64,000 bases of DNA from contig CAZAZU010000001.1 of NCBI GenBank assembly GCA_964490105.1, forward strand, positions 306,361-370,360. Direction: 5' to 3'. Source of the stretch: an uncultured Gammaproteobacteria bacterium (GTDB lineage Bacteria > Patescibacteriota > Microgenomatia > Levybacterales > UBA12049). A model generated the notes under the pieces. It was not told the DNA's origin, made no database searches, and saw nothing but the letters and a program-made list of their open reading frames with translations. Within the stretch, counting starts at the first letter, position 1. Each line of letters begins with the position of its first letter. Shown here one piece after another: positions 9,855-64,000 of this stretch. The translations under genes and the position numbers were made by a program.

Positions 9855-12404
9855 TTATTTTTTATACACTGTAATCGTTAGTGGTGAGGCATCAAGACCC
9901 GCAATTGTATAATCTTTATCATTCAGAAATAGCATGCTTGTATCTTTTTTAAATTCTTTTATGACTTTGTAATTTTCTTTATTGAGTCGTCTGGTCAGAT
10001 CTTTTTTTGGAGAATTGTATTGAATTTCTCCCTCAACTTCATGATTCGTAATGACAATTACCTCAGGGAGCATCTTAGTGTTTGCGTCAACTATTTCATA
10101 CTTAAACTTGTTTTTGCTTCCAATACCATACTCTTTAAAATAAAATTCTTTTTGTAATTTATCTGGTATGTTTTGATAAATTGGTATATTTTCAAGTCCA
10201 ATTACCCAACCAGCTGGAATATTTTCTACTATCCAGTCGGAAGATTCTGACTGTAGGCTCTTAGTATATTTTGTTCCGATCCACGCTAGAGAAAAACAAA
10301 TCTGCGTTAGTATAATGGAAATTAAAATTAAATTTGACAGAATCTTAAATTTACTTTTCTTATCCCACAATCTCCATGCAATTGAAATTATTAATACAAA
10401 AAAAGGAAGGAGAACTAACGCCCTATTCCCACCTGCGTAAGCCTTAAGAGTTACTAAGCTTGATAGAAAAAGCATGAAAGAAAAAATAGTAAATATTTCC
10501 TGCTTATAATTCTTAAGTGATTTATTTAATCCGGATTTAAAAATTGAAGTAATTAAAAAAGCTAAAGACAAAATGAATAATGCTAATAATCCAGCTCCGA
10601 ATACCACTAAATAGTGTTTTAAGAAAACATAAATAATAAGATTTTCTCCACCTCTTATATTTTCAGAAGCTTTGGGGAATATAACCAGGTTTTCATATAA
10701 ATATCTGTAAATATTTCCAGTTCCGAATAATGTATCAGGAAAACCAAAAAGAATAGCGGTAAATAAAATCACAAAAAAACCAAACACCAGAAACCTTATG
10801 TTTTTTATTTTTTCTTTCTGAAACATTAGGTATGAGAGCAAATAAATTGGGATTAAAGACAGTACGCTGATCTTTACTGAAAGGGCCATTCCGACTGGAA
10901 TTCCTGCAATAATATAATTAATTCCTGTTGGGTTTTTCGAAAATTTGATGAAGAAGTAAATGCTCAGAAGTATAAAAAACATTAATGCGACATCGTACTT
11001 AAAGTATCCGCTTAACATTAGCCAGAGCGGATTAAAAGTGAATAATGTTATAGCAATTCTCTTTGGAATTTTTAGTAAATCAGATATTTTATAAACTAAA
11101 ATAATTGATAGGATTCCCCATATAACTGTGGTAAGTCTTAGCAGGATAAAAATATTCTGTCTTGCCATAAGATCATCTATCTTTAACTCAAAAGGATTAA
11201 CTATTCCTAAAAGTGTAAAAGGGATTAGGTAAAGACCGGATAATACAAAATGAAGCATAGTCCCATTTGCTGAACCCTCTATATTTGGCGTCCCGTATGC
11301 GTAGGTTGATCTTACAGCTTGAAGCTGATGCCACTCATCCATATGATATGGAAACGGATGGGAAATATTTGGAATTCCATAATTAACCGTTAGAAGCATT
11401 AAAAAAATGTATACTAACAAAACAAAAATCAAAAACTTACTTTTAATCAAAATGGAAACAAATTTTTTATAGCTAAACCTCTTGGCTATTCCAAGAGTAG
11501 TTCCTAATAAAACGGCTACGTCAGATGTAATTTGAAGTAGAGGAAGAATTAATAATGCCTTTTTATCATCTACGTATTTATAATTTTTCTTTACTACCCA
11601 GATAAAATATAAAACAATTGCTGCTGGAAAAATCAATAATCCGCTCCATGATCTTTCTAGAAAACACAAGAATAAAAAATAAAATCCGATAAAATATCTC
11701 AGGTAAATTAATGGAACCTGAGGCCTAATAAATAATGCTCTCCCATCTCCTTTTGCATAACCTAGAAATTGAAAAAATGCTTCTTTCAAATTATTTTTTT
11801 GCTCCCAATAAACAACTGCATTTTTTACAAAGATAAATTTGGAACCTTTTTCTTTTAATCTTTTAGCAAATACCAGATCCTCACATGTATCAAGCCACTC
11901 AGGGTATTTATTTTTATGCCAAACTTTTTTTCTGAAAGCGACCGAACGGGAAGAAGGTAAGAAGTCGTTTTCATTTACTTTGTCAGGCATTACGCAAGTA
12001 TATGCAGCCAAACATTTTTTAAATATATTTCCTGTAACTGGTTTATAAAATCCGGATACAGTGTCAATCTCCAAATCTTCAAACGGTTTAGAAATATTTT
12101 TAACCCAATTTTTATCGAGGCTGCAGCCAAAATCCGTTACAAGAATTATTTCATTTGAGGAATTCTTAATAGCAAAGTTACGGCCCACTGACCTGTTTCC
12201 TTTTTTTTGAAGAATTTTAATTTTCAACCTTTTTTTACTTCTTTTTACTATTTTTTCTTTTAATTTTTCTACAGTTTTATCTATACTTCCTCCATCTACT
12301 ATTATTAATTCATCGGGAAGAAGCGTTTGAGAAAATAATGATTTGAAAAATCTATCTACGTTATTTTCTTCATTTATGACGGTAGCTATAAGAGATAATC
12401 TCAT
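9855..12404 (-). CDS. Fusion of a GT2 glycosyltransferase to a large polytopic membrane domain (GT-C-like)
   Basis: The N-terminus has the GT2 motif LIATVINEENNV...LIIVDGGSIDKT, followed by about 600 aa of multi-TM domain. Confidence 0.6.
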   Translation of the reverse strand: MRLSLIATVINEENNVDRFFKSLFSQTLLPDELIIVDGGSIDKTVEKLKEKIVKRSKKRLKIKILQKKGNRSVGRNFAIKNSSNEIILVTDFGCSLDKNWVKNISKPFEDLEIDTVSGFYKPVTGNIFKKCLAAYTCVMPDKVNENDFLPSSRSVAFRKKVWHKNKYPEWLDTCEDLVFAKRLKEKGSKFIFVKNAVVYWEQKNNLKEAFFQFLGYAKGDGRALFIRPQVPLIYLRYFIGFYFLFLCFLERSWSGLLIFPAAIVLYFIWVVKKNYKYVDDKKALLILPLLQITSDVAVLLGTTLGIAKRFSYKKFVSILIKSKFLIFVLLVYIFLMLLTVNYGIPNISHPFPYHMDEWHQLQAVRSTYAYGTPNIEGSANGTMLHFVLSGLYLIPFTLLGIVNPFELKIDDLMARQNIFILLRLTTVIWGILSIILVYKISDLLKIPKRIAITLFTFNPLWLMLSGYFKYDVALMFFILLSIYFFIKFSKNPTGINYIIAGIPVGMALSVKISVLSLIPIYLLSYLMFQKEKIKNIRFLVFGFFVILFTAILFGFPDTLFGTGNIYRYLYENLVIFPKASENIRGGENLIIYVFLKHYLVVFGAGLLALFILSLAFLITSIFKSGLNKSLKNYKQEIFTIFSFMLFLSSLVTLKAYAGGNRALVLLPFFVLIISIAWRLWDKKSKFKILSNLILISIILTQICFSLAWIGTKYTKSLQSESSDWIVENIPAGWVIGLENIPIYQNIPDKLQKEFYFKEYGIGSKNKFKYEIVDANTKMLPEVIVITNHEVEGEIQYNSPKKDLTRRLNKENYKVIKEFKKDTSMLFLNDKDYTIAGLDASPLTITVYKK

Positions 12405-12479: not shown

Positions 12480-13823
12480 ATGCAAAAGATAGTTACGGTA
12501 ATTGGAATTGGGAGAGTCGGACTACCTCTTGCATTATTAATCTCCAGCAAAGGCTATACCGTATACGGAATAGGAAGAAACGAGAGTAAGATTGATCTCT
12601 TAAAGAAAGGCATCATGCCATTCAAAGAAGAAGGCGGAAATTTACTTAAAAAAAATATTAATAAAACTTTTATACCAACCACTAACTACGAGTTCGCTAA
12701 AAAATCAAACATTATCATATTAACACTAGGAACCCCGATCGACGAGAACATGAATCCAGTTCTTAGTCAAATTGACAGCGCTATTAATAAATTAATTCCA
12801 TTCTTACAAAAAAAACAGTTAATAATTTTAAGAAGCACAGTTTCCCCCCAAACAACAGAATATGTAAAAGAAAAAATAGAAATGTCTACAAAATTAAAAG
12901 TGGGCCATGATATCTTCCTTTCTTATTGTCCCGAAAGAATTGCGCAAGGAAAAGCAATTACTGAAACTAAAAGTATTCCTCAAATAATTGGGGGCATTAA
13001 TGAAATTTCTTCCGAAAAATCAAAAATCTTTTTCGAATCAATTGGAATAAAGTGTATTTTAACCGATGACGTTAGCGCAGAACTTGCAAAGCTATTTACC
13101 AATATGTACAGATACATATCCTTTGCAATCTCAAACGAATTTATGGTTATTGCGGAAAATTACAACAAAAACATCCATGAAATAATAAATCTTATAAATA
13201 AGGATTATAAAAGAGGCGGGCTGGCATTACCCGGACTGACAGCAGGTCCATGCTTATTTAAAGATGGCTTTTTCTTGATCAATGATAACCCCTACTTAGA
13301 TCTAATTACAGCCTCCTGGAAAATCAATGAATCACTACCATTGTTTTTAATTAAGAAAATGAAAGAAAAAACACCCCTTAAAGGTAAAAGAGTTTTGATC
13401 CTGGGTGTTGCGTTCAAACCGCAAATTGATGACATCAGGGAATCATTAAGCTTTAAATTACGCAAAGCATTACTTAGAGAACACGCAGAAGTGATCCTGC
13501 ACGACCCCTTCGTAAAAAATTATCACTCTCAAGAAGTTCTAAAAAATCTGGATGATGCGCTAAAAAATGTCGATATGGTTTTCGTAGCTACGAGGCATAA
13601 TGTTTATTCTAGAGAAAAGAAAAAAATAATTTCTAAGCTTTCTAAGGAAACATATATTTGCGATGTTTGGAACGTATTTGATTTCAACAAATTAGTATTT
13701 AAGGCTGGAGAGATTAATTCTAAAAAAGTCAAAGGAAAACTTCTAAAAACATCAATAAATCATTCAAAAAGAAAAACAGCTGGAATCAGAGCTACGTCAA
13801 ATAACCTTACCAACATTAATTAA
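12480..13823 (+). CDS. Nucleotide-sugar 6-dehydrogenase (UDP-glucose/GDP-mannose dehydrogenase family)
   Basis: N-terminal NAD-binding motif VIGIGRVGLPLA and the catalytic Cys motif GPCLFKD (compare GGxCFPKD). Confidence 0.7.
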   Translation: MQKIVTVIGIGRVGLPLALLISSKGYTVYGIGRNESKIDLLKKGIMPFKEEGGNLLKKNINKTFIPTTNYEFAKKSNIIILTLGTPIDENMNPVLSQIDSAINKLIPFLQKKQLIILRSTVSPQTTEYVKEKIEMSTKLKVGHDIFLSYCPERIAQGKAITETKSIPQIIGGINEISSEKSKIFFESIGIKCILTDDVSAELAKLFTNMYRYISFAISNEFMVIAENYNKNIHEIINLINKDYKRGGLALPGLTAGPCLFKDGFFLINDNPYLDLITASWKINESLPLFLIKKMKEKTPLKGKRVLILGVAFKPQIDDIRESLSFKLRKALLREHAEVILHDPFVKNYHSQEVLKNLDDALKNVDMVFVATRHNVYSREKKKIISKLSKETYICDVWNVFDFNKLVFKAGEINSKKVKGKLLKTSINHSKRKTAGIRATSNNLTNIN

Positions 13824-14773
13824 CTTGGGTTTGCTATATACCACTGCGCAGTCTTCTTAACTCCGTCCCTAAGACTTACCCTAGGCCTGAAACCTAATTT
13901 AGTAATCTTAGCTACATCAGGACACCTTCTTTGAGGGCTCCCGGGATTAATTTTTCCGGGTACCAATTCAACCTCATATTCCATTGCCCTACTGCACAGC
14001 TTAACTAAATCCTTAATAAGAACTTCATCCTGTCTTCCTATGTTGTACGTTTGAAGTGTTTTTGCATTACTTAGAAGAAGCATGAATGCGTCAGTAAAAT
14101 CGTCAATATATATAAATGAACGAGACTGATCTCCATTTCCCTGGATCTTAAATTCAGTTTTATTATGTTTTTTTAATTTATTAATTCCTAAAATAAATTG
14201 AGGAATAACATGCTCAAATCCCATTGCGGGGCCGTAAACATTATGCGGACGGAAAATCACCATTTTTTTAAATTTATTACCATTATTAATTGCCAATAAC
14301 TCCCCTATTATCTTACCTCCAGAATAAGAATAACGGGGATTATAAGGGTCAGGAACAATTAAGGGCGTACTTTCAGGCGTGGGTATTAATGAAGGCTCAT
14401 TATAGACCTCAGAGCTTGATGCAAAGAAGAATTCCTGTACGTTATTCTTGATAGAAGCGTCAAGAATATTTACCATTCCCTTAACTGCAACGTCTAGTAC
14501 GAGATCGGGTTTTTCGTAAAAAGTCTGGGTTCCATTTATATACGCCAGATGAATTACTGTACTAATCCCCTGGCATGCATCATCAACTATTTTTATATCT
14601 CGAATATCCCCCTTTATGAATTCAATTTTTTCGGAAAGCTTACCGAATTTATCAAATGATCCTCTTGACTCATTATCTAGTACTCTAACTGATTCACCTT
14701 TTTTCAAAAGAGAAAGAACTATAGATCTTCCAATAAATCCGCTCCCCCCAGTAACTAGATAGTTTTTTTTCAT
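13820..14773 (-). CDS. NAD-dependent epimerase/dehydratase, UDP-glucuronate decarboxylase (UXS)-like
   Basis: VTGGSGFIGRSIV, SSSEVY (compare TSEVYG in UXS) and YSGGK (YxxxK). It is divergent from, and adjacent to, the nucleotide-sugar dehydrogenase. Confidence 0.55.
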   Translation of the reverse strand: MKKNYLVTGGSGFIGRSIVLSLLKKGESVRVLDNESRGSFDKFGKLSEKIEFIKGDIRDIKIVDDACQGISTVIHLAYINGTQTFYEKPDLVLDVAVKGMVNILDASIKNNVQEFFFASSSEVYNEPSLIPTPESTPLIVPDPYNPRYSYSGGKIIGELLAINNGNKFKKMVIFRPHNVYGPAMGFEHVIPQFILGINKLKKHNKTEFKIQGNGDQSRSFIYIDDFTDAFMLLLSNAKTLQTYNIGRQDEVLIKDLVKLCSRAMEYEVELVPGKINPGSPQRRCPDVAKITKLGFRPRVSLRDGVKKTAQWYIANPS

Positions 14774-14829
14774 TTATAGTTTGCATTATACCGCACTTAT
14801 CTAACAGATAATTTGCGAATGTTTTTTTT

Positions 14830-54695: not shown

Positions 54696-56042
54696 TTAAA
54701 GCGTGAATTCTTCGTTGTGGGTTGGAAGACTAATATCTGAAAGATTCAAATCACTTTTAAGCTTTTCCCTAAATGCTTTTCTGGAATCCTCATCCCCATG
54801 CACTAAGAAAACCTTCTTAACTCCTTTAATGTGTCCTACCCATTTCATAAGCTTTTCTTGATCGGCATGCGAGCTTAAAGATTCAATCTGACTCACCCTA
54901 GCATTTACACTTATGTTCTTTTTTTCAATCGTTATATTTCTAGCTCCTTCTAAAATCTTTCGGCCGAGTGTTTCATCTGCCTGGTAACCCACAAATAAAA
55001 TAGTGGTACTTGGTCTATTTAAATAGTTTTGTGCGTGATGTAATATGCGTCCTCCAGTCATCATTCCAGACCCCGCAATTATAACTTTTGGATCCATAGC
55101 TTCAATTATCCGCCTGCTCTCTTTCTGATCCTCAGTCACTACTAATCCTTCAAAATTAAACGGACCTGTTTTATGCGCTTTTAACTCATCATTAAAAAAT
55201 TCTCTGAAATCTCTAAAAATAGTAGTGACCCGAATTCCCATAGGCGCATCTAAAAATACCGGAATGCTTTGTGAAATTTTCCCGTCTTTTTTTAAATGCT
55301 TTATCTTATGGAGTAAATCCTGAGTTCTTTCGATTGAAAATGCAGGAATGAGTAAAACTCCACCGCTTTTGTCAGTATTATTAATTTCTTCTTCAATTAT
55401 TTTTAATGAGTCTTCTTTTTTATGAAGCCTATCTCCATAAGTAGTTTCCATTACTACAAAATCAGCTTCATCTATTAACTCAGTTGGCGGAACTAAATCC
55501 TCAGGACTATTTCCTAAGTCTCCGCTAAATATAATCTTTTTTGAATTTCCATCTTCATTTATTACGACTTCTATAGTTGAGGAACCTAAAATATGCCCGG
55601 CATCCTTAAAATTAAAGGTAAAACTTCCAATCTTAAGCGGCCTATTATAGTCAATAATTTCTACCATATTTAGGATTTTTTCTACCTCTTCACCGCTATA
55701 AAGAGGGAATCTGTCCTTCTTTTCCATGGAAATCTTGGCAGAATCATTTAGAATAATTTCAATCAGTGAAAGCGTGGGGGCAGTCATATATATTTTTCCT
55801 TTAAATCCTCCGTATGCTAAGAGGGGCAATCTTCCACAGTGGTCCAAATGAGCATGAGTTAAAAGAATGGCGCTTAAATCTGAGGCTTTAAAATCCAGTT
55901 TTTCATAATTTAAATCTTCTAAGAGTTTTCCGCCCTGAAACATTCCAAAGTCCACCATTATTTGTTCATTTGCATCAGTTGTCAGAAGAAAAGAAGAACC
56001 GGTCACTTGACCGGCCGAACCCATGAATTTAATTTTTGCCAT
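54696..56042 (-). CDS. MBL-fold metallo-hydrolase, beta-CASP family (putative RNA-processing nuclease)
   Basis: HAHLDHCG metal-binding motif and beta-CASP spacing. 448 aa. Confidence 0.65.
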   Translation of the reverse strand: MAKIKFMGSAGQVTGSSFLLTTDANEQIMVDFGMFQGGKLLEDLNYEKLDFKASDLSAILLTHAHLDHCGRLPLLAYGGFKGKIYMTAPTLSLIEIILNDSAKISMEKKDRFPLYSGEEVEKILNMVEIIDYNRPLKIGSFTFNFKDAGHILGSSTIEVVINEDGNSKKIIFSGDLGNSPEDLVPPTELIDEADFVVMETTYGDRLHKKEDSLKIIEEEINNTDKSGGVLLIPAFSIERTQDLLHKIKHLKKDGKISQSIPVFLDAPMGIRVTTIFRDFREFFNDELKAHKTGPFNFEGLVVTEDQKESRRIIEAMDPKVIIAGSGMMTGGRILHHAQNYLNRPSTTILFVGYQADETLGRKILEGARNITIEKKNISVNARVSQIESLSSHADQEKLMKWVGHIKGVKKVFLVHGDEDSRKAFREKLKSDLNLSDISLPTHNEEFTL

Positions 56043-56086: not shown

Positions 56087-57211
56087 TTAACTTTTAAGTC
56101 TTGAGACGACTTCTTTCATGAGTTTTTCCAAACCAATATTATTTTTTACCGAAATAAAAATAGGTGTATACTGCCTATAATCTTCCTCTAACCTAGATAA
56201 GTCTTCTTTTGAAATTTTATCTATTTTATTAAAGACATATATTACCTTAGACTCGTCGATTTTAAGATCATTTAAAATTTCTTCAACTACTTTTAATTTT
56301 TCAAAGCTTTCATGATCTGATGCATCAATCAAATGCAAAATTACATCCGCATGAATGGACTCTAGAAGTGTCGATTTAAAAGCCTGAATAAGACGAGGCG
56401 GTAAATTTCTTATAAAACCAATCGTATCCGTAAATAATACTTTTCGAGAAAGCTCCTTAACATAAACTTCTCCAACCACACTATCAAGGGTCGCAAACAG
56501 AGCGTTTTCTACCAAAACATCTCTTCCTGTGAGCTTATTAAATAAATTACTTTTGCCGGCATTCGTATAACCCACAATTGAAACTGTTTTATAGCCTTCT
56601 TTTTTTCTTCTCTCAATTCTCTTTTCTCGTTCATCGGTTAATTTATCCAGCTGATCATTAACTTTTTTTATCTCATTTCTCCAGTGCCTTTTCATGAGCT
56701 CTGTATTAGTTTCCCCAACTCCAGATGTCCCAATTCCTCCGCCCTGGCGAGACATCACAAATCCCATTCCATAAATTCGAGGACCCATATATCGCATACG
56801 AGCCAGTTCAATCTGAAGCTTCGCTTCTTTGGTTACAGCATGTTTATCAAAAATGTGAAGTATGAGATCCACTCGATCAAATACCTCAATGTTAGGATTT
56901 ACTTTCTGAAGTGCAGATTTAAGGTTAAAAACTTGCTTGGGTTTAGCAGTTTTATTTAAAACGACTACGTCAATATTTTTCTCTTTTACAATTTCAGCGA
57001 TCTCCTGTACTTTACCTTTCCCGACAAATGTAGCCATGTCTGGATTATTTAACTTCTGAATTACCCGATCGATTATTTTTCCACCTAATGTGTCGATCAA
57101 TGATTCGAGCTCTTCACCAGAATCGATTGATCTTTCTTTATTTGCTCTAGGATTTATGACGTGAATAGGTAAAAATCTAAGAAGCAGATTATTTTCTTTC
57201 ATGCCCCTCAT
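56087..57211 (-). CDS. hflX: GTPase HflX
   Basis: G1 GYTNAGKS, G3 DTIGF and G4 NKID, plus the HflX N-domain. Confidence 0.8.
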   Translation of the reverse strand: MRGMKENNLLLRFLPIHVINPRANKERSIDSGEELESLIDTLGGKIIDRVIQKLNNPDMATFVGKGKVQEIAEIVKEKNIDVVVLNKTAKPKQVFNLKSALQKVNPNIEVFDRVDLILHIFDKHAVTKEAKLQIELARMRYMGPRIYGMGFVMSRQGGGIGTSGVGETNTELMKRHWRNEIKKVNDQLDKLTDEREKRIERRKKEGYKTVSIVGYTNAGKSNLFNKLTGRDVLVENALFATLDSVVGEVYVKELSRKVLFTDTIGFIRNLPPRLIQAFKSTLLESIHADVILHLIDASDHESFEKLKVVEEILNDLKIDESKVIYVFNKIDKISKEDLSRLEEDYRQYTPIFISVKNNIGLEKLMKEVVSRLKS

Positions 57212-57243
57212 TATAACAGCATGCGTATGTCAGAAGTTAGTTT

Positions 57244-57282
57244 CTAATTCTTCTGCCTAAGAAATGCTGGTATGTCCCAAAC
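57244..57282 (-). repeat. att-like direct repeat: displaced 3-prime fragment of ftsZ (12 codons plus stop), 40 bp upstream of hflX
   Basis: The minus strand reads gtt tgg gac ata cca gca ttt ctt agg cag aag aat tag, which is [12 protein letters not shown]. The identical 14-bp core is agaaatgctggtat. Confidence 0.65.
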
Positions 57283-57360
57283 AGCTTTAATTTTTAGCTT
57301 CATTTCTTACTAAAAACACCTAAGAAGAATGTATAACTTTTATGAAATGGAGTCAAGCGA

Positions 57361-57858
57361 TTACTTTACAGTTCTAGTTTCAGAATTCGGTAGGGTAATT
57401 GACCAATATATAACTTGTGACCAAGAGTTAAGATTTTTACTTTTTAAATTTAAATACCAGGTTCCTGCTTTAACATGATTAAATCTAGAAACGGTTTTAT
57501 ATGTGTCTACTAATGGTCCTGGATTGGAGCCTGGATATTTAGAGATTGAAACGCTATATCCAAGGCTATCCTGTATGTTTTCCCAGTCAAATTTAATACT
57601 GTATTCATTTTTCTGACTATTATAATCATTAGTAATTGTAGCACTAACTGGTATTGGCGATGGGGTAGGAGTCGCTATATAACGCATTACTGGAAGTTGA
57701 ACAGGAGCACTCCCGCCATTGTGATAATGATATGTACCAGCACATGCACCTACATTACAATTATGTCCTCCCGATGAATCTGTTCTACCAGAATGTGCGT
57801 AAACACCAGAAACAGATACGAGCAAGAGAATATATACCATCACTAATGTTTTTTTCAT
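57361..57858 (-). CDS. Secreted YHYH-motif protein (putative metal-binding; compare Pfam YHYH protein family)
   Basis: Signal peptide, then AHSGRTDSSGGHNCNVGACAGTYHYHNGG. Confidence 0.45.
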   Translation of the reverse strand: MKKTLVMVYILLLVSVSGVYAHSGRTDSSGGHNCNVGACAGTYHYHNGGSAPVQLPVMRYIATPTPSPIPVSATITNDYNSQKNEYSIKFDWENIQDSLGYSVSISKYPGSNPGPLVDTYKTVSRFNHVKAGTWYLNLKSKNLNSWSQVIYWSITLPNSETRTVK

Positions 57859-58022
57859 TAACCTTGCTTATACTTCATTTAGGTTGAGAAATCAACCTTT
57901 ATTAAAGGTGCTGTTATTATTTAGTGGGAGAAATACCCATAGGGATTTATTGATAGCTTCATTATTTACCAAAAACTCCGGTAAATTTATAAGATTATTA
58001 ATGACAGAGGATCATGGGGCTA

Positions 58023-58337
58023 TTAGTAAGGTTCCGACACACTCTCTATCTCTTCAAGACTTTCAAGAGCATATCCCATATCATCGTAAGGTTCCCAGGC
58101 GTATGATTTTGCAGAATTTATCGTATAATTAGCTTCTTCAATATTGCTATTTGCCTCTTCTAAGGCATTTTGAAGTTCTTCTGTTCTTCCAGTCTCCTCA
58201 TCGTAGGCATTAAACCACTCTTCTGAAGTTCGACCTTCATATTTTCCAGATCCCTCGAAAATAAAATAAACAATTAATGCTCCGATTACAATGCCACTTA
58301 CTGTACCGATCCAGCCGCCTTTATTTTCTTCTTCCAT
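58023..58337 (-). CDS. Small single-TM acidic protein
   Basis: 104 aa with one TM helix (WIGTVSGIVIGALIVYFIF) and an acidic C-terminus. Confidence 0.3.
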   Translation of the reverse strand: MEEENKGGWIGTVSGIVIGALIVYFIFEGSGKYEGRTSEEWFNAYDEETGRTEELQNALEEANSNIEEANYTINSAKSYAWEPYDDMGYALESLEEIESVSEPY

Positions 58338-58394
58338 ATTTTGCTTATACTCCTAAATTAGGAAAAAAGCAATTTAAATTGTATTTCATGAAAT

Positions 58395-59090
58395 TTGGAG
58401 AGAACCTGCTATCATATTACTGTGGAAAGTCCTTATAGTGTATATAAATGGTTTACTCCACGCTTTGCATTAAACTACTTTGCACGTTTAGCTGTCGAAA
58501 AAGGTGAGCAAGCATATAAGGACAATAAATATAAAAAGGCAAGAGAAGCATGGATCTTGGGATTAGCATTACTGGGAATAAACAAACTTACAAATTTACA
58601 ATGGTGGCTTCAAGTTCCCAAAGACGACCCACCGGATATGCGAGCAATGACACTTGTATCAAATGAGCAAAAGAACCAAAATGAGATGAATCATCGTGAA
58701 ATAGAAATTACTCAGATTACAAAATATTCAAAAGCAGAGATAGAAGATGAGATATTAAAGAAATTAAAAAATAAATATTACACTAAAGAAACTTGTCTAT
58801 TAGTTTACATAAACAGAAATCAGTATATTAGTGATATGAGAAAAATTGCAAAAAAACTAGAGGGAAAAATAAATATTTCTGACATCTGGATTGTTGCATC
58901 TACATCAGTGGATTCGTCTAAGCATATCCTTTTTTGTCTACATCCACATATTCAAGTTCAAAATTTTGACTTATTCGAAGAAGCAAATAAAATCCCTCCC
59001 GGAGATTTAATTGAATTAAAACCTCTTTCTAAAGGAGTTAAAATGACTTTAGTTAAAAAAGTTCCTATATCTAAATTTATTCCTGAATAA
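58395..59090 (+). CDS. Hypothetical protein (element cargo)
   Basis: 231 aa ORF with no recognised family. Confidence 0.3.
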   Translation: MERTCYHITVESPYSVYKWFTPRFALNYFARLAVEKGEQAYKDNKYKKAREAWILGLALLGINKLTNLQWWLQVPKDDPPDMRAMTLVSNEQKNQNEMNHREIEITQITKYSKAEIEDEILKKLKNKYYTKETCLLVYINRNQYISDMRKIAKKLEGKINISDIWIVASTSVDSSKHILFCLHPHIQVQNFDLFEEANKIPPGDLIELKPLSKGVKMTLVKKVPISKFIPE

Positions 59091-59136
59091 CAGAATAAAA
59101 GTAACTTAAAAATATCCGCGTCGCATTTCAGTAATT

Positions 59137-59200
59137 GTACGACATAACTTTGAGGCTAGTTCACATTCTGTATTAGGTCATTGAGGCTAAGTACATAACT
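59137..59200. repeat. Pair of short direct repeats in swapped order (gtacGAcataact + ttgaggcta ... ttgaggcta + gtacataact) in the intergenic region between convergent cargo genes
   Basis: ttgaggcta is at 59150-59158 and 59181-59189. gtac(ga)cataact is at 59137-59149 and 59191-59200. Confidence 0.3.
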
Positions 59201-59206
59201 ATAAGA

Positions 59207-59653
59207 TTAATTACAGGGGAAGTTTTTGCTTTCTTTTTCTCCTTCCCACATCTGACATTTTATCTTTCCCGTACACTTATCAACCATATAAAAATTGCTT
59301 GCTGAATTAATGATTCCATTATTATTTGCTAATTTAATTGTCCAAACTTTACTTTTTTCAGGATCTTCATTCCATTCCATACCAACTAAATTAGGATTGC
59401 CCTCCTCTACTTTTCGCATCTCAATGAAGTATTCCTTAACTTCATCCAATTCATTAACAATATCAAGTGCTTGATTAAATGATATATTCTTACAAAAAGG
59501 TGTAGGGGTAACCATATTTTGCTTAACTTCCAAGAAAGGCATAGCAACTTTCCTTTTGCCAGCTTCAAATGAAATGAATATTAGAAAAACTGCTAAGAAC
59601 ATGAGCAACGATCCACCAATTAAATTTTTCATTTTTCTTATAGCACTAAACAA
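59207..59653 (-). CDS. Hypothetical membrane-anchored or secreted protein (element cargo)
   Basis: N-terminal hydrophobic helix LLMFLAVFLIFISF. 148 aa. Confidence 0.3.
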   Translation of the reverse strand: MFSAIRKMKNLIGGSLLMFLAVFLIFISFEAGKRKVAMPFLEVKQNMVTPTPFCKNISFNQALDIVNELDEVKEYFIEMRKVEEGNPNLVGMEWNEDPEKSKVWTIKLANNNGIINSASNFYMVDKCTGKIKCQMWEGEKESKNFPCN

Positions 59654-60330
59654 TCACTATAAATCTTAATATATAGTTTTTGTCCTTCATTTTTAATACC
59701 AGAAGTCATGAGCGAGATTTGATTATTACTATCCTTTGCCCACTGCTTCATTAATTCTCCATCGTACTCAGGTGCAGACTCGGAGGTGTAGCGGCCAGGG
59801 TATTTACTCTTTGCTATTTCAAAAGAGAATAACTCTGGATAATCAATTCTTAATTTATTTTGGGCATTTTGTTCAAATTCTATTTGCTTTGATGATGCCA
59901 AATCCTTACAAAAAGCATCCCAGTTCGCAGGCCTATTGCTTGTAGGAACTACAATTGTATTTGAAGTTTTCGATGGCATATAAACGAATGGCTTAGGCCT
60001 TGGTGATTGAGTTGGACTAGGTGTTGGTGAAGATTGATAAATTGCTTTAGTCGTAGGCTCAGAGATCACTTGCTTATAATTTGTTTCATAATTTATTGAG
60101 GTAGTTATTGTTGGTGTTGGTGTACTTGTAATGTAACTGTCTTCTTTCGTTTCTTGGACAGGAAATTGATAGGTATCTGTTCCCAACACAAGAGCTTGCG
60201 ATCTTCCATACACATATGAAGATCCAAGAATTAAGAAAAATATAATAACTAATAAAGGTTTATTTGTCAGAATAGCGTTTAACTTGCTTGCATGAGCTTT
60301 TTTCCTTACCATGGCTTGTTTATATACCAT
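59638..60330 (-). CDS. Hypothetical membrane-anchored protein with a Pro/Thr/Ser-rich linker (element cargo)
   Basis: N-terminal TM helix, a TPTPTITTS...SPTPSPTQSPRP linker, and a C-terminal globular domain. Confidence 0.3.
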   Translation of the reverse strand: MVYKQAMVRKKAHASKLNAILTNKPLLVIIFFLILGSSYVYGRSQALVLGTDTYQFPVQETKEDSYITSTPTPTITTSINYETNYKQVISEPTTKAIYQSSPTPSPTQSPRPKPFVYMPSKTSNTIVVPTSNRPANWDAFCKDLASSKQIEFEQNAQNKLRIDYPELFSFEIAKSKYPGRYTSESAPEYDGELMKQWAKDSNNQISLMTSGIKNEGQKLYIKIYSDCLVL

Positions 60331-60374
60331 ACCCTATAGGAAATCAAGTAAACCCAAGGACGTATAATGTATAT

Positions 60375-60665
60375 ATGACATTAAAACAAAAAGCATTTAT
60401 TAAGAAATATATCGAACACAACGGAAATGCTACCAAAGCTGTTAAGGATATCTATAACGTGAGAAATGATAACTCTGCATCAGTTATAGGATCTAGATTG
60501 TTAAGAAATGTTAAGGTATCAAGGGAAATTGATAGAATAATTGAGGCTGATAAGACTTTCCTTCCCTACATACTTAATGAGTTAAAATATTCGATCGAGA
60601 ATGGATCAGAAGTAAGTAAATACAAAGCTCTCATGTTTGCATTTAAGTTGCATGGCATCAGTTAA
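60375..60665 (+). CDS. Phage terminase small subunit-like protein (Terminase_2/P27-type TerS N-terminal HTH)
   Basis: MTLKQKAFIKKYIEHNGNATKAVKDIYNV...SVIGSRLLRNVKVSREIDRI matches the typical TerS start (LTPKQEAFCxEYxxxxNATQAAIRAGYSxKTA...SRLLRNVKVQERI). Confidence 0.55.
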   Translation: MTLKQKAFIKKYIEHNGNATKAVKDIYNVRNDNSASVIGSRLLRNVKVSREIDRIIEADKTFLPYILNELKYSIENGSEVSKYKALMFAFKLHGIS

Positions 60666-60814
60666 GATCATTCTTCATCTTCTTGATTAACAGTTTTATA
60701 TGATGCTGCAGTGTCAATTAAAAGTAATATTATAAAAATCACCCAGCTAAATGTCCAATCTGTGAACAAAACTATCAGTGAATAAATTATACTCATTGTT
60801 TTTTCTTAAAAAGC

Positions 60815-60832
60815 CTATACCCCCTATACCCC
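60815..60832. repeat. Tandem 9-bp direct repeat ctatacccc x2 in the long non-coding stretch of the element
   Basis: Seen directly. The repeat is C-rich in an AT-rich background. Confidence 0.3.
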
Positions 60833-60930
60833 TGCTTTAGTCTAATTATATTATCTCAATTAACCTTATAAATACACAATAAAATTTTACTACATTAAGC
60901 AAAAAAAACGACCCATGATATAATATAAGT

Positions 60931-61046
60931 ACAATAAAAATAGGGTTCAAAAGCCTGACTTTCGGCTTAGAATCCATAACCGAAGCCGTGTAAACGGTGA
61001 CTCAGGAAGCCTAATCGTTGAAAAATACGAAGAGGCTTCTTTTTTG
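60931..61046 (+). ncRNA. Candidate structured small RNA of about 115 nt, with an extended -10 promoter and an intrinsic terminator
   Basis: TGATATAAT lies at 60916-60924. Hairpins include aagcc/ggctt (60951-60968). The terminator stem gaagcct (61006-61012)/aggcttc (61033-61039) is followed by TTTTTT (61040-61045). The region contains no credible ORF. Confidence 0.3.
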
Positions 61047-61073
61047 TTGGAAAAATTCGGGTACTGATAAAAG

Positions 61074-61110
61074 CTCCTGTTTGGGCCAGTACCCGAGACA
61101 GGAGTTTTTA
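61074..61110 (+). terminator. Rho-independent terminator-like hairpin immediately upstream of the next start codon
   Basis: Stem ctcctgt (61074-61080)/acaggag (61098-61104), a 17-nt loop, then TTTTTATTTT. Confidence 0.4.
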
Positions 61111-61115
61111 TTTTA

Positions 61116-61466
61116 ATGGACCATATAAGCAAAATTTTAAATAAAAAGACAAATATTAACGATATTAACGTTAATAATAAGATTTTAAATAACGATACTA
61201 ACGATACTTCTAGTAAATATTCGTTAAAAGATACTTTTATTCCTAATACTCCTAAAACACAATTGGCTCAGGAAATAGCATCGTTTTTAAATGATACTGA
61301 CAACTATGCATGTTTTTTGGATATTGTAAACAAGATTGGCGTTGATAACGCAAAACGATTACTGAAAGTCGTTAAAGAAGACATTAAAGATAAAGAATCC
61401 ACAAGCACACCTGTAAGAATCCCTGCAAAGTATTTCGTATGGAAATATAGAAAGGGATTGTATTGA
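61116..61466 (+). CDS. Hypothetical protein (element cargo, Asn-rich N-terminus)
   Basis: 116 aa ORF located upstream of the RHH gene and the integrase. Confidence 0.3.
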   Translation: MDHISKILNKKTNINDINVNNKILNNDTNDTSSKYSLKDTFIPNTPKTQLAQEIASFLNDTDNYACFLDIVNKIGVDNAKRLLKVVKEDIKDKESTSTPVRIPAKYFVWKYRKGLY

Positions 61467-61467
61467 G

Positions 61468-61632
61468 ATGAAAAATCGACAAGTCGACAAAAAGTTAACA
61501 ATGCAAGTACGTATAGATTCTGAGTTACATAGAAGGATCAAAATTAAAGCATCGACGCTTTCTGTAAGTGTTAAAACGCTCCTAGAGGGGTTAATTATTG
61601 AAGACCTAAAAGAAGAAACGTCTCAAAATTAA
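61468..61632 (+). CDS. Ribbon-helix-helix (Arc/CopG/MetJ-like) small DNA-binding protein. Candidate element regulator or excisionase.
   Basis: My own translation gives a 54 aa ORF: MKNRQVDKKLTMQVRIDSELHRRIKIKASTLSVSVKTLLEGLIIEDLKEETSQN. The pattern of a beta-strand (MQVRID) followed by two helices is typical of RHH proteins. It is shorter than the ORF-track cutoff. Confidence 0.4.
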   Translation: MKNRQVDKKLTMQVRIDSELHRRIKIKASTLSVSVKTLLEGLIIEDLKEETSQN

Positions 61633-61650
61633 TACTTGCAATATATTTAA

Positions 61651-62739
61651 TTGAAAACTAATATGGAAACAGGTTTCTTACATCCTCAAATACTCTCAAG
61701 TCGCTTCCAGAAAGGAAGCATTTCTCTGTTACAAGAAGAATTTGTCAAATATCTTACAATTAAAGGATTATCTGCCAAATCTATAAAAACATATTCAGCT
61801 AGATTTCGAATATTTAATCAATGGCTAATTGACAGAAATTTTACATTAAATCGAACCTCAATTGAAGAATTCTTGTTTGAAAAAAAGAAAGCTGGATATT
61901 CAAATTCTGGTATAAATAGCTACATTCAATCGTTAAATTATTTACAAAAATATTTCAAATCACATGGTAGCGAGATACTCTTCATGGTAGATATTGAAAC
62001 TCTCCCAAAGGAAAAATCAAAAGTAATTGCACTATCATTATCAGAATCATATAAGCTAATAGACACACCTTTAGTATATAAAAATAGGAATGGGGTGGAT
62101 TGCAATAAGTTAGATTTAACTTATTTGACACTTACAGAATTTATTTTATTTACAGGTTGCAGATATCACGAAGCTTCATCCTTGAAAATTTCCCAATTAG
62201 ACATTGATGAAGGAACGTCATTCTTAACAGATACAAAAACTAAAGAACCCAGATATTTATTGTTTGATGGCATAGTTAAAGAACACCTTAGACAACTCAC
62301 AAAAAATAAATCAATAGATGATCTTGTGTTCACTAATAGCAAAGGGAATGAGATTCATTCTGGAGACTTTTGGTCTAATCTTAAAAAAAGAGCAAAGAAA
62401 GCAGGTATAACCAAGAAAGTTCATCCTCACATTTTAAGACACACTTATGCAACGCTTTATTACAAAAAAACCCACGATATTTCAATGGTTGCTAGATTAT
62501 TAGGTCATAAGGACTTCAAAACTACACATGATACATATGTCCACACAGATTTTGAAGAAATACAACTAGCAAGCAGACAACATCCACTTCTTTCTCGCTA
62601 TACATCTACAAATGAGGTTTTACAAGATTATAAAAATTCTTTTGAAAAGATTTATACTAAGGAGGATGATAGATTTGAATATATTCCAAGTCTTAGTGAC
62701 AATGAATTAATAATTAAAGTTAAATTAAAAGGGGCATAG
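61651..62739 (+). CDS. int: Tyrosine-type site-specific recombinase/integrase
   Basis: C-terminal catalytic region HPHILRHTYATLYY...LLGHKDFKTTHDTYVHTD (R...HxxR...H...Y). The N-terminus has a SAM-like core-binding domain. Confidence 0.85.
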   Translation: MKTNMETGFLHPQILSSRFQKGSISLLQEEFVKYLTIKGLSAKSIKTYSARFRIFNQWLIDRNFTLNRTSIEEFLFEKKKAGYSNSGINSYIQSLNYLQKYFKSHGSEILFMVDIETLPKEKSKVIALSLSESYKLIDTPLVYKNRNGVDCNKLDLTYLTLTEFILFTGCRYHEASSLKISQLDIDEGTSFLTDTKTKEPRYLLFDGIVKEHLRQLTKNKSIDDLVFTNSKGNEIHSGDFWSNLKKRAKKAGITKKVHPHILRHTYATLYYKKTHDISMVARLLGHKDFKTTHDTYVHTDFEEIQLASRQHPLLSRYTSTNEVLQDYKNSFEKIYTKEDDRFEYIPSLSDNELIIKVKLKGA

Positions 62740-62797
62740 ATAAAACTACACCCCCTCCTCAAGTCGCTTCCTATTAGGCTTCTCACATCCAATAAAA

Positions 62798-62815
62798 AAG
62801 CACCTTGTTAGGTGC
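62798..62815 (-). terminator. Weak intrinsic terminator for ftsZ on the minus strand, carried by the element
   Basis: On the minus strand, ggcacc taacaa ggtgc is followed by ttttttatt. The stem is 5 bp. Confidence 0.3.
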
Positions 62816-62841
62816 CATAGTAAAATTATGAAGCTAATTCT

Positions 62842-62880
62842 TTAATTTTTCTGTCTTAGAAATGCTGGTATATCCCAGAC
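62842..62880 (-). repeat. att-like direct repeat forming the current 3-prime end of ftsZ (12 codons plus TAA)
   Basis: The minus strand reads gtc tgg gat ata cca gca ttt cta aga cag aaa aat taa, which is [12 protein letters not shown]. Confidence 0.65.
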
Positions 62881-64000
62881 CTCCTCGTCGTTTTCTGGGA
62901 CTGGGGTTTGGGGATTTGAAGGTTGATTCCCTGTATTTTGATCCTGCTGATTTTGATCCATTGGCTGCTGTTGATTATTATTAATCGTATTTGACTGAGG
63001 AGTTACGTTATAATTTTGCTGAATAGGGGGAGCTACAAATTCTCTTAAAGTTTGCCTTGCACTATCAAAACCTGTTGCAATAACGGTAATTTTCATCTGA
63101 TCTCTCATGGTCTCATCGATTGTCGCACCAAAAATGATATTTGCGTCACTATCTGCAGCTTGGGCAATAATTTTAGCTGCCTCATCAACTTCATTCATTG
63201 TTAGGTCTGGACCTCCGATTACATTAAAGAGTACTCCGCGAGCGCCTTCCATGGTAATTTCTAAAAGAGGAGAAGCGATAGCGGACCTGGCTGCAGCTTG
63301 GGCTCTATTCTCTCCAACTCCAGTTCCAATACCCATAAGAGAGGAGCCTGCATTTTGCATAATAGTTCTTACATCTGCAAAGTCGACATTGATAAGTCCC
63401 GGCATAGTGATGAGGTCTGAGATTCCCTGCACGCCTTGAGTAAGAACTGAATCTGCTACTTTAAAAGCTTCAAGAAGAGAAAGTTTCTTATCTACTACGT
63501 CTAGTATTCTCTGGTTGGGAATGACAATAAGAGTATCAACTTTATCTTTAAGAAGTTCTATTCCCTCTTCAGCTGCTACCATTCTTCGGGTTCCTTCAAA
63601 AGTAAAAGGCTTTGTAACGACTGCTACAGTTAGCGCGCCTACTTCCTTAGCTGCTCTAGCAATAACAGGTGTTGCGCCGGTTCCAGTTCCTCCACCCATT
63701 CCAGCTGTAAGAAAAACCATGTCAGTACCATCTAAAATATCTTTTAATTTTTCATAAGATTCCTCTGCTGCATTTGCTCCTACCTCAGGATTTCCGCCAG
63801 ACCCCAAACCCTTGGTGAAATCTTCACCGATTTGAACTTTTGTGGCCGCTTGATTGAGAAGAAGACTCTGAGCATCGGTGTTAACAGCTATAAAATCTAC
63901 TCCTTGGATTGAGGATTGGGAGATCATGGAATTAAGAGCATTACTACCTCCGCCTCCAATTCCCATGACACGAATCTTAGCGAAATTTGTTGTTTGAGGC
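62842..64000 (-). CDS. ftsZ: Cell division protein FtsZ. The N-terminus lies beyond the window end.
   Basis: [14 protein letters not shown] and the tubulin signature [10 protein letters not shown]. The C-terminal conserved peptide is [10 protein letters not shown]. The reading frame stays open to the window edge. Confidence 0.85.

Follow-up and report, generated by a model that had tools for sequence, protein, structure and literature searches.

How has a bacterial genome come to carry the last codons of ftsZ, an essential cell-division gene, a second time at a distance of 5.6 kb from the gene itself? The question is raised by a 64-kb stretch of DNA (the window) which, as judged by comparison with GTDB species representatives, belongs to a Levybacteria-type bacterium of the Candidate Phyla Radiation (CPR). 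The block between the two copies, 57283-62841, which separates ftsZ from hflX, is very probably a site-specific integrative element of about 5.6 kb that sits in the 3' end of ftsZ and restores this gene. The loci and contigs with which it was compared are labeled with L-numbers (L001, L009, etc.).

A preliminary description of the window had reported two 39-bp direct repeats with 33/39 identical positions, and these were recovered when recomputed from the window sequence (57244-57282 and 62842-62880); the pair is the longest direct repeat within 55-64 kb of the window. Translation confirmed that both copies encode, on the minus strand, the same 12-residue FtsZ tail followed by a stop codon, namely TAG in the distal copy (GTTTGGGACATACCAGCATTTCTTAGGCAGAAGAATTAG, 57282..57244) and TAA in the ftsZ copy (GTCTGGGATATACCAGCATTTCTAAGACAGAAAAATTAA, 62880..62842). 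A 14-nt block, AGAAATGCTGGTAT, is identical in both repeats and occurs nowhere else in the 64 kb (chance expectation 0.04). The six differences between the copies, described earlier as synonymous, are all located at codon position 3, indicating that selection on the FtsZ reading frame has acted on both copies; peptide and stop would survive six random changes with a probability of 2.2e-5 (1.4e-4 if a transition bias is assumed). The ftsZ-proximal copy is the true end of the gene, as had been proposed, since the protein contains the Pfam domains Tubulin (2.5e-47) and FtsZ_C (1.3e-34), and its N-terminus runs off the window. The distal copy is indeed an orphan fragment, preceded by stop codons, but the 40 bp formerly given as its distance from hflX needs correction: 32 nt separate it from the longest hflX start (57211), and 40 bp fits the next ATG. 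The claim that a protein-coding gene is the target also held; no tRNA gene or Rfam family was found near the insertion site, and the possibility that an RNA gene is in fact targeted was rejected.

The tyrosine integrase that had been placed just inside the right repeat was found there, its gene ending 102 nt from the repeat. Its open reading frame (ORF) comprises 362 aa, and the public gene call, which begins at 61663 (M5), comprises 358 aa. A protein search with this integrase returned about 38 homologs with 43-67% identity, from which a clade hidden Markov model (HMM) was built and scanned against metagenome and IMG/VR viral sets. In these first scans the clade was sharply bounded, with members at 316 bits or more and the next best match at 126 bits; L250, found later through the att core, scores 150 bits against the clade HMM. 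Members of the clade range from 29 to 67% identity. R171, K196, H260, R263, H286 and Y296 are invariant across 31 of them, and the catalytic set of the window integrase is intact.

In all 16 independent clade loci with flanking sequence (window, L001, L003, L005, L006, L007, L008, L010, L011, L040, L089-L092, L251 and L261), a DNA copy of the FtsZ tail lies approximately 100-320 nt from the integrase, which bears out the suggestion that homologs of this integrase would be found beside ftsZ. The tail copy ends a full ftsZ, following ftsA, murG and ftsW, in seven loci (window, L001, L003, L005, L007, L010 and L040) and is an orphan in L006, L008, L011, L089-L092, L251 and L261. Three geometries are known, namely, I) an integrase convergent with ftsZ, e.g., in the window; II) an integrase co-directional with ftsZ (L003, L005 and L040); and III) an integrase divergent from an orphan copy (L089-L092 and L250), in phage-like contexts. 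L092 has a virion-protein match, and two further members, L169 and L170, come from IMG/VR contigs of 33-38 kb, L169 with exonuclease and HNH matches. Related elements were found neither among deposited phages (best identity at most 30%) nor among plasmids. A clade member is present in 3/80 GTDB species representatives, and the closest relative of the window, L009, lacks one.

It is this relative that defines the boundaries of the block. L009 is syntenic with the window on both sides; homology runs up to the ftsZ stop (window position 62841) and sets in again within the left repeat, at 57255. Between these breakpoints, L009 carries only an insert of 0.54 kb that is unlike the window cargo, a 138-aa ORF and, exactly at the position of the orphan, a decayed tail remnant, TTTTTACGACAGTAGAATTAG ('FLRQ*N*'). 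The remnant has 5/21 differences including an in-frame stop, approximately the neutral rate of its flanks, and has the TAG stop and the downstream flank in common with the window orphan, which indicates that the hflX-proximal copy is the displaced ancestral end of ftsZ. With TAA coming from the element and TAG from the host, the differing stop codons are explained. The presence of a different insert between the same flanks, with breakpoints exactly at the repeat edges, also indicates that the window cargo is not ancestral synteny, the alternative that the preliminary description had named. In five related genomes, the ftsZ-hflX interval measures 0.58, 2.1, 2.8, 4.4 and 5.6 kb. A second tail copy is located 11.1 kb away in L001 and 7.6 kb away in L005, bounding cargo unlike that of the window (SIR2-like and TerS-like genes in L001; kinase, NUDIX and McrB-N genes in L005).

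Junctions of the P-O-P' type, which connect the integrase arm with the arm of the far end, are present in L006, L261 and L251 with a full tail and stop and without ftsZ, and the elements themselves therefore carry the tail. In L006, whose integrase is 67% identical to that of the window, the integrase arm is followed by a complete 15-residue tail copy and then by a homolog of window 57283-57357, i.e., the interior of the window element beside the far repeat. The element-type tail in L006 has a TAA stop, then AGA(A/T)TTAGCTTC, and the TAA-ending ftsZ copy of the window matches it. This junction, which encodes the full tail with the same downstream motif, substantiates the earlier idea of an element-borne replacement copy of the ftsZ end. 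When the window attP was reconstructed by an arm swap at the 14-nt block, it was collinear with L006 (TTGAC, TTAGGTG, AAGCTAA, TTAGCTT and CACCTA at a constant 22-nt offset), and attB was reconstructed as ...GTCTGGGATATACCAGCATTTCTTAGGCAGAAGAATTAGAAACTAAC.... It is thus anticipated from sequence that the attP of the window element likewise carries the tail. The consensus core of the orphan, element-side copies, GTCTTAGAAAT-CCCCGC-ATTTCTAAGAC, is a perfect 11-6-11 dyad, and the best dyad center in the region is the middle of CCCCGC (0.59 vs 0.43 for the next). The left half-site in ftsZ is constrained by the x-W/F-D/E-I codons and fits the dyad less well. Both window copies share the unusual center ACCAGC (ATA-CCA codons), as would be expected if identical centers are a prerequisite for strand exchange, and the identity blocks of other repeat pairs always include the Pro-Ala-Phe codons.

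In the mechanism proposed here, the element's own Xer-like integrase would insert it into an attB within the last 10-12 codons of ftsZ. The attP would carry a synonymous copy of these codons together with a stop codon, the short TTAGCTTC motif and a terminator hairpin. With a crossover inside the Ile-Pro-Ala-Phe codons, element DNA would complete ftsZ, the P' arm giving the gene its TAA stop and its terminator, while the original host tail with its TAG would remain beside hflX, orphaned at the far end of the element. The reaction would be Xer-style, taking place at a dif-like 28-bp core (11-6-11) with accessory sequences in the arms.

Several observations weigh against an integrative element. 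An empty attB, in which ftsZ-TAG is directly followed by hflX, was not found in the same or sister species, and the contigs with identical HflX, retrieved by exact look-up, carry the element in 3/3 cases; L009 was considered as an empty site and rejected, as it is differently occupied. No closed circular contig was found among related elements: L006 and L261 have no terminal overlap, nor do the contigs of 5.5-6.6 kb that were considered as circles, of which L007 proved to be a piece of chromosome and L008 to be collinear with the integrated form. Both the empty site and the circular form, with which the preliminary description had proposed to check the insertion, were consequently sought in vain. 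The P-O-P' junctions described above are not proof of circles, because tandem elements give the same junction (L011 att2 and L251 att2). Furthermore, no replication, conjugation or packaging genes were recognized in Pfam, PHROG and NCBIfam scans besides a TerS-like helix-turn-helix (HTH), and the GC content of the 5.6-kb block is slightly below that of its flanks, a mild difference only. Some of these points would suit a grounded island that arrived by site-specific integration at ftsZ and is now a fixed, immobile relic with the repeats as its scars, namely, the occupancy of all three identical-HflX contigs, the lack of a circular form among the contigs checked, and the lack of transfer or replication genes in the scans. 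That decay in place occurs is evident from the decayed orphans in L009, L044 and L045. Such a fate is possible but rather doubtful for the window element, whose integrase is full length with all catalytic residues, whose orphan is still a perfect 12-codon frame with third-position differences only, where the L009 remnant has decayed, and whose P and P' arm motifs are intact and collinear with L006. The element may still be mobile.

It is unlikely that the block is a phage satellite resembling phage-inducible chromosomal islands (PICI), with a TerS-like protein for packaging by a helper phage that has an integrase of the same clade. Its size of 5.6 kb, its integrase, its small ribbon-helix-helix (RHH) protein, a putative regulator, and a TerS-like gene conserved in L008 and L001 would fit such a satellite, as would the distant clade members on the 33-38 kb IMG/VR contigs or near virion-protein or exonuclease/HNH genes. 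However, only the N-terminal HTH part of Terminase_2 is matched (55/141 positions), no primase or replicase, capsid-remodeling gene or recognizable master repressor appeared in the Pfam, PHROG and NCBIfam scans, and no helper phage was identified; neither replication nor packaging-redirection genes typical of PICI or Staphylococcus aureus pathogenicity islands (SaPI) were matched beyond the TerS-like HTH. Hardly credible is an origin of the repeats in a local duplication of the ftsZ 3' end unrelated to the integrase, or an integrase that is a housekeeping Xer conserved beside ftsZ. The fold is Xer-like, XerA, XerD and XerC are the best family matches, and the core is laid out like dif, but the scores lie far below the equivalog cut-offs (149 vs 220 for XerA, 106 vs 330 for XerD, 102 vs 335 for XerC). 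The patchy distribution of the integrase, in three of the 80 species representatives and missing in the closest relative, effectively refutes this explanation. In addition, the same layout of repeat and integrase recurs with unrelated cargo in many lineages, and the element-side arms are conserved between elements. An integrative element that restores ftsZ remains the preferred interpretation, and its parts are compiled in Table 1.

Table 1. Coordinates of the ftsZ-associated element and its flanks in the window
Feature	Coordinates	Strand	Remarks
ftsZ, target gene	62842..64000	-	N-terminus beyond window end; 389 aa on the longer contig L249, downstream of ftsA and murG
ftsZ-proximal att (B-O-P' type)	62842..62880	-	Last 12 codons and TAA of functional ftsZ
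Proposed 28-bp core, ftsZ-proximal att	62880-62853	-	Proposed 6-bp center ACCAGC at 62869-62864
P' arm	62780..62841	-	TTAGCTTC motif and hairpin/T-run
TTAGCTTC motif in P' arm	62830-62837	-	Plus-strand GAAGCTAA; inverted partner of P-arm motif
Hairpin and T-run in P' arm	62816-62799	-	Putative intrinsic terminator for ftsZ
Xer-like tyrosine integrase	61651..62739	+	Convergent with ftsZ; PF00589 3.8e-28, SAM-like N-terminal domain, phrog_1 integrase
RHH (Arc/Omega-like) protein, 54 aa	61468..61632	+	PHROG Arc-like and HicB-like matches; operon with integrase
116-aa protein	61116..61466	+	Upstream of RHH-integrase pair; no family match (Pfam, PHROG, NCBIfam)
TerS-like small protein	60288..60665	+	N-terminal HTH; PF03592 4.8e-11, phrog_51; 125 aa, called at 96 aa on L249
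Variable cargo	57361..60330	both	Five small proteins, mostly secreted or membrane-anchored (Pfam, PHROG, NCBIfam scans)
230-aa membrane-anchored protein	59638-60330	-	Only one of the five with a homolog in a related element (L008)
148-aa membrane-anchored protein	59207-59653	-	
231-aa protein	58395-59090	+	
104-aa protein	58023-58337	-	
YHYH-domain secreted protein	57361-57858	-	
P arm, element-side flank of distal att	57283..57360	-	Conserved stretch of ~75 nt
Promoter-like TTGACT-17-TACATT in P arm	57356-57328	-	Points outward through att
P-arm motif TTAGGTGTTTTTAGTA	57308-57323	-	Plus-strand coordinates
P-arm motif GAAGCTAAAA	57292-57301	-	Plus-strand coordinates
Distal att (P-O-B' type)	57244..57282	-	Orphan FtsZ tail, TAG stop
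Proposed 28-bp core, distal att	57282-57255	-	Central ACCAGC at 57271-57266
hflX, far host flank	56087..57211	-	Pfam GTP-bdg_N, GTP-bdg_M, MMR_HSR1; syntenic with L009

The P arm is 80% identical to L006 5705-5779 and 83% identical to L008 46-97, and its motifs are found again ahead of orphan copies in numerous genomes. Its promoter-like sequence, detected in a promoter scan, has a counterpart at the same position in L006 and may act as a promoter. On the opposite side, the tail and stop of the ftsZ-proximal copy lead into motifs of the element type, which the L006 junction contains as well; the P'-arm arrangement recurs in L006, L261 and L250 and, in part, in L007 and L032. The hairpin stems vary among elements with the pairing kept (CACCT/AGGTG vs CACCC/GGGTG). 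In the convergent elements L001, L006, L007 and L011, the RHH gene is conserved (50-62% identity) immediately ahead of the integrase gene, and its 54-aa product is a candidate regulator or directionality/excision factor. The TerS-like protein, which matches PF03592 (Terminase_2) over the N-terminal 55 of 141 profile positions only, has a 55%-identical homolog in L008, and a Terminase_2 gene is present in L001.

Some further features were noted at the hflX end. The orphan tail together with the P arm forms a 19-codon ORF with an ATG (window 57226-57300, minus strand) downstream of the promoter-like site; its product would amount to the FtsZ docking peptide in free form. A decoy peptide as a feature of the family was rejected, as other orphans have stops or lack a start codon there. 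The outward promoter is probably not needed for hflX, because this gene keeps its own conserved upstream region containing TATAAT, common to L009. Adjacent to hflX, a host metallo-beta-lactamase (MBL)/beta-CASP gene (RNase J-like, window 54696-56042) has, on L249, a precomputed Pfam match to Anti-Pycsar_Apyc1, most likely reflecting merely the shared similarity of the MBL fold. Following this gene, L009 contains about 2.3 kb of extra DNA relative to the window (12515-14786), including a partial duplicate that matches window 54690-54362, and this is a second variable spot near a sigma70_r4-domain gene. Many of the closest FtsZ loci (L009, L010, L012, L014 and others) come from metagenome-assembled genomes (MAGs) titled 'uncultured Gammaproteobacteria' or 'Pseudomonadales'; these record names look wrong, because ftsZ and the synteny are plainly Levybacteria/Patescibacteria-like.

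The window element is one member of a family that spans Levybacteria, Gottesmanbacteria and related Microgenomates, whose members pile up in tandem arrays at the FtsZ-tail site and range from integrase-less cassettes of 0.5-3 kb and islands of 5-11 kb to probable prophages. Among the ftsZ loci of GTDB species representatives, 47/80 encode the tail IPAFLRQ[KR]N, and 38 of these 47 have at least 2 kb of sequence downstream. One or two extra tail copies, nearly all in the same orientation, were found in 13 of the 38, the other 25 being without an orphan; five extra copies are present in L015, in which a scaffold gap covers the tail of ftsZ itself. Extra copies were not found in the surveyed lineages with other FtsZ tails (Saccharibacteria, Pacebacteria and Actinomycetota). 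The P-arm motif GAAGCTA is located upstream of 11/22 orphans, compared with 0/47 ftsZ-attached copies. Roughly half of the orphans are peptide-perfect and the remainder are decaying. In metagenomes, orphans beside clade integrases end in QGR or QRS, which match FtsZ tails of other Microgenomates (QGR in L050, L052 and L076; QRS in L033).

Segments bounded by tail copies are often cassettes of 0.5-3 kb without an integrase (L011, L012, L014, L015, L022, L043 and L251). Related pairs of an antitoxin and Doc/Fic are present at differing array positions in L011, L015 and L044, and related Fic genes in L015 and L022; other cassettes contain NUDIX-like, MBL, deformylase-like and dehydrogenase genes. 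It is tentatively suggested that the FtsZ-tail site could serve as a platform for cassette accretion, in which integrase-less cassettes with a P arm would be moved in trans by co-resident Xer-like integrases at a dif-like 28-bp site in the docking-peptide codons. Doc/Fic toxin-antitoxin, enzyme and defense cassettes would then be captured, shuffled and exported by the integrases of islands or phages, and their location at the end of the division operon would couple cassette transcription to ftsZ expression. If this were true, CPR bacteria would possess a functional analogue of integrons or of cis-mobilizable elements (CIMEs), and the genetics of the phylum a ready-made integrase/attB pair.

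Other observations concern individual loci of the family. Defense or toxin cargo is found in related islands at L001 2435-6218, L005 13416-18182 and L251 780-3057 and on a 52-kb contig, comprising SIR2_2 next to a 976-aa protein, Mrr_cat with SLFN/AlbA_2, GmrSD_N with HEPN, McrB-N, Zeta toxin, Fic/Doc and HicA, and in these genomes the region after ftsZ behaves as a hotspot of defense and toxin-antitoxin genes. In L017, a degenerate tail copy is located 47 nt past the ftsZ stop (11095), and an intact inverted orphan with a typical P arm is also present (12522), which suggests an inversion between att copies. In L074, FtsZ (11054) ends in QRN, while the orphan (12172), presumably the original end of the host gene, has QKN. 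Integration has apparently replaced K by R at the next-to-last position of FtsZ, in parallel with the conservative change made by e14 in icd. Short repeat units of the form 'ccttcg...ctcagga' beside att copies in L015 (11820-11890, 14690-14760 and ~13170-13235) and L025 (~12790-12856) have the appearance of a small repeat or hairpin element that has entered the P arm. In L015, a published Levybacteria MAG, the ftsZ tail lies inside a run of N (~11040-11090), and several contigs of related elements from Logan and ENA terminate in or close to att copies (L008, L255, L259 and L261); the repeat evidently breaks assemblies. Misassembly or truncation of the 3' end of ftsZ may therefore be frequent in CPR MAGs.

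With these elements, ftsZ, an essential division gene, joins the chromosomal landing sites of mobile elements, with an insertion point within the codons of the C-terminal peptide by which FtsZ docks FtsA and other partners. The locus also shows the precision of copying that safe insertion requires, since only silent differences are tolerated. Little has been described of the mobile elements of CPR/Patescibacteria, for which an integrase clade, a 28-bp candidate core and a hotspot directly after ftsZ are now defined. Knowledge of the hotspot helps MAG annotation, as assemblies often break there, and the integrase/attB pair could in principle serve as an integration tool in organisms with a matching FtsZ tail.

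Elements that target coding sequences usually preserve the gene through a fragment borne by attP, and tandem arrays are formed by repeated integration (PMC7192596). No report of integration at ftsZ was found in full-text literature searches, and 'ftsZ' is missing from the accessible part of the TIGER/Islander survey supplements. The mechanism is the textbook 3'-end replacement strategy, and ftsZ as its target appears to be unreported; besides the target, the CPR host group and the scale of the hotspot are new. The classic case is that of e14 and phage 21 in Escherichia coli, in which a tyrosine integrase targets the 3' end of icd and the element supplies an alternative end that keeps the gene functional. 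The displaced host fragment persists on the far side as a pseudo-copy, and the two copies differ mainly by silent or conservative changes (PMC6379469); direct-repeat blocks and tandem behavior are also described for icd (PMC7192596). The ftsZ element resembles e14/phage 21 in the restoration of the gene by element DNA and in the displaced fragment, but differs in its target, in a duplicated block of 30-39 nt instead of ~160 nt, in its short Xer-like integrase and in its CPR hosts. With tRNA and tmRNA islands it shares a target fragment in attP, an integrase at one end, end repeats and tandem arrays (PMC7192596), whereas the target here is coding and the ftsZ repeat therefore evolves under codon constraint. 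A clade of integrases defined by one protein-coding target, with many genomes and diverse island or prophage cargo, is described for the dusA-specific integrases (Farrugia et al. 2015, PMC4482086). The ftsZ integrase clade is likewise defined by one protein-gene target, but dusA is a non-essential gene used at its 5' end in Proteobacteria, and ftsZ an essential gene used at its extreme 3' end in Patescibacteria.

The integrase-less cassettes of 0.5-3 kb bounded by FtsZ-tail copies are CIME-like. In Streptococcus thermophilus, CIMEs beside ICESt1/ICESt3 at the 3' end of fda are flanked by att sites, lack an integrase and stand in tandem with an integrase-bearing element. The cassettes at the ftsZ site differ from these in that they often consist of single toxin-antitoxin or enzyme genes. 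Their array-like arrangement resembles an integron by analogy only, since the repeats are copies of a coding tail with a dyad core and not attC hairpins, and the integrase scores 52 bits (cut-off 265) and 46.5 bits (cut-off 435) against the IntI models. Integrative mobile elements exploiting Xer (IMEX), e.g., the CTX phage at dif, borrow the host XerCD. The ftsZ element is like Xer/dif in its simple Xer-type fold and in its proposed core with 11-bp inverted half-sites around a 6-bp center, but, unlike IMEX, it encodes its own recombinase, and its site lies inside a coding sequence instead of the site of chromosome dimer resolution.

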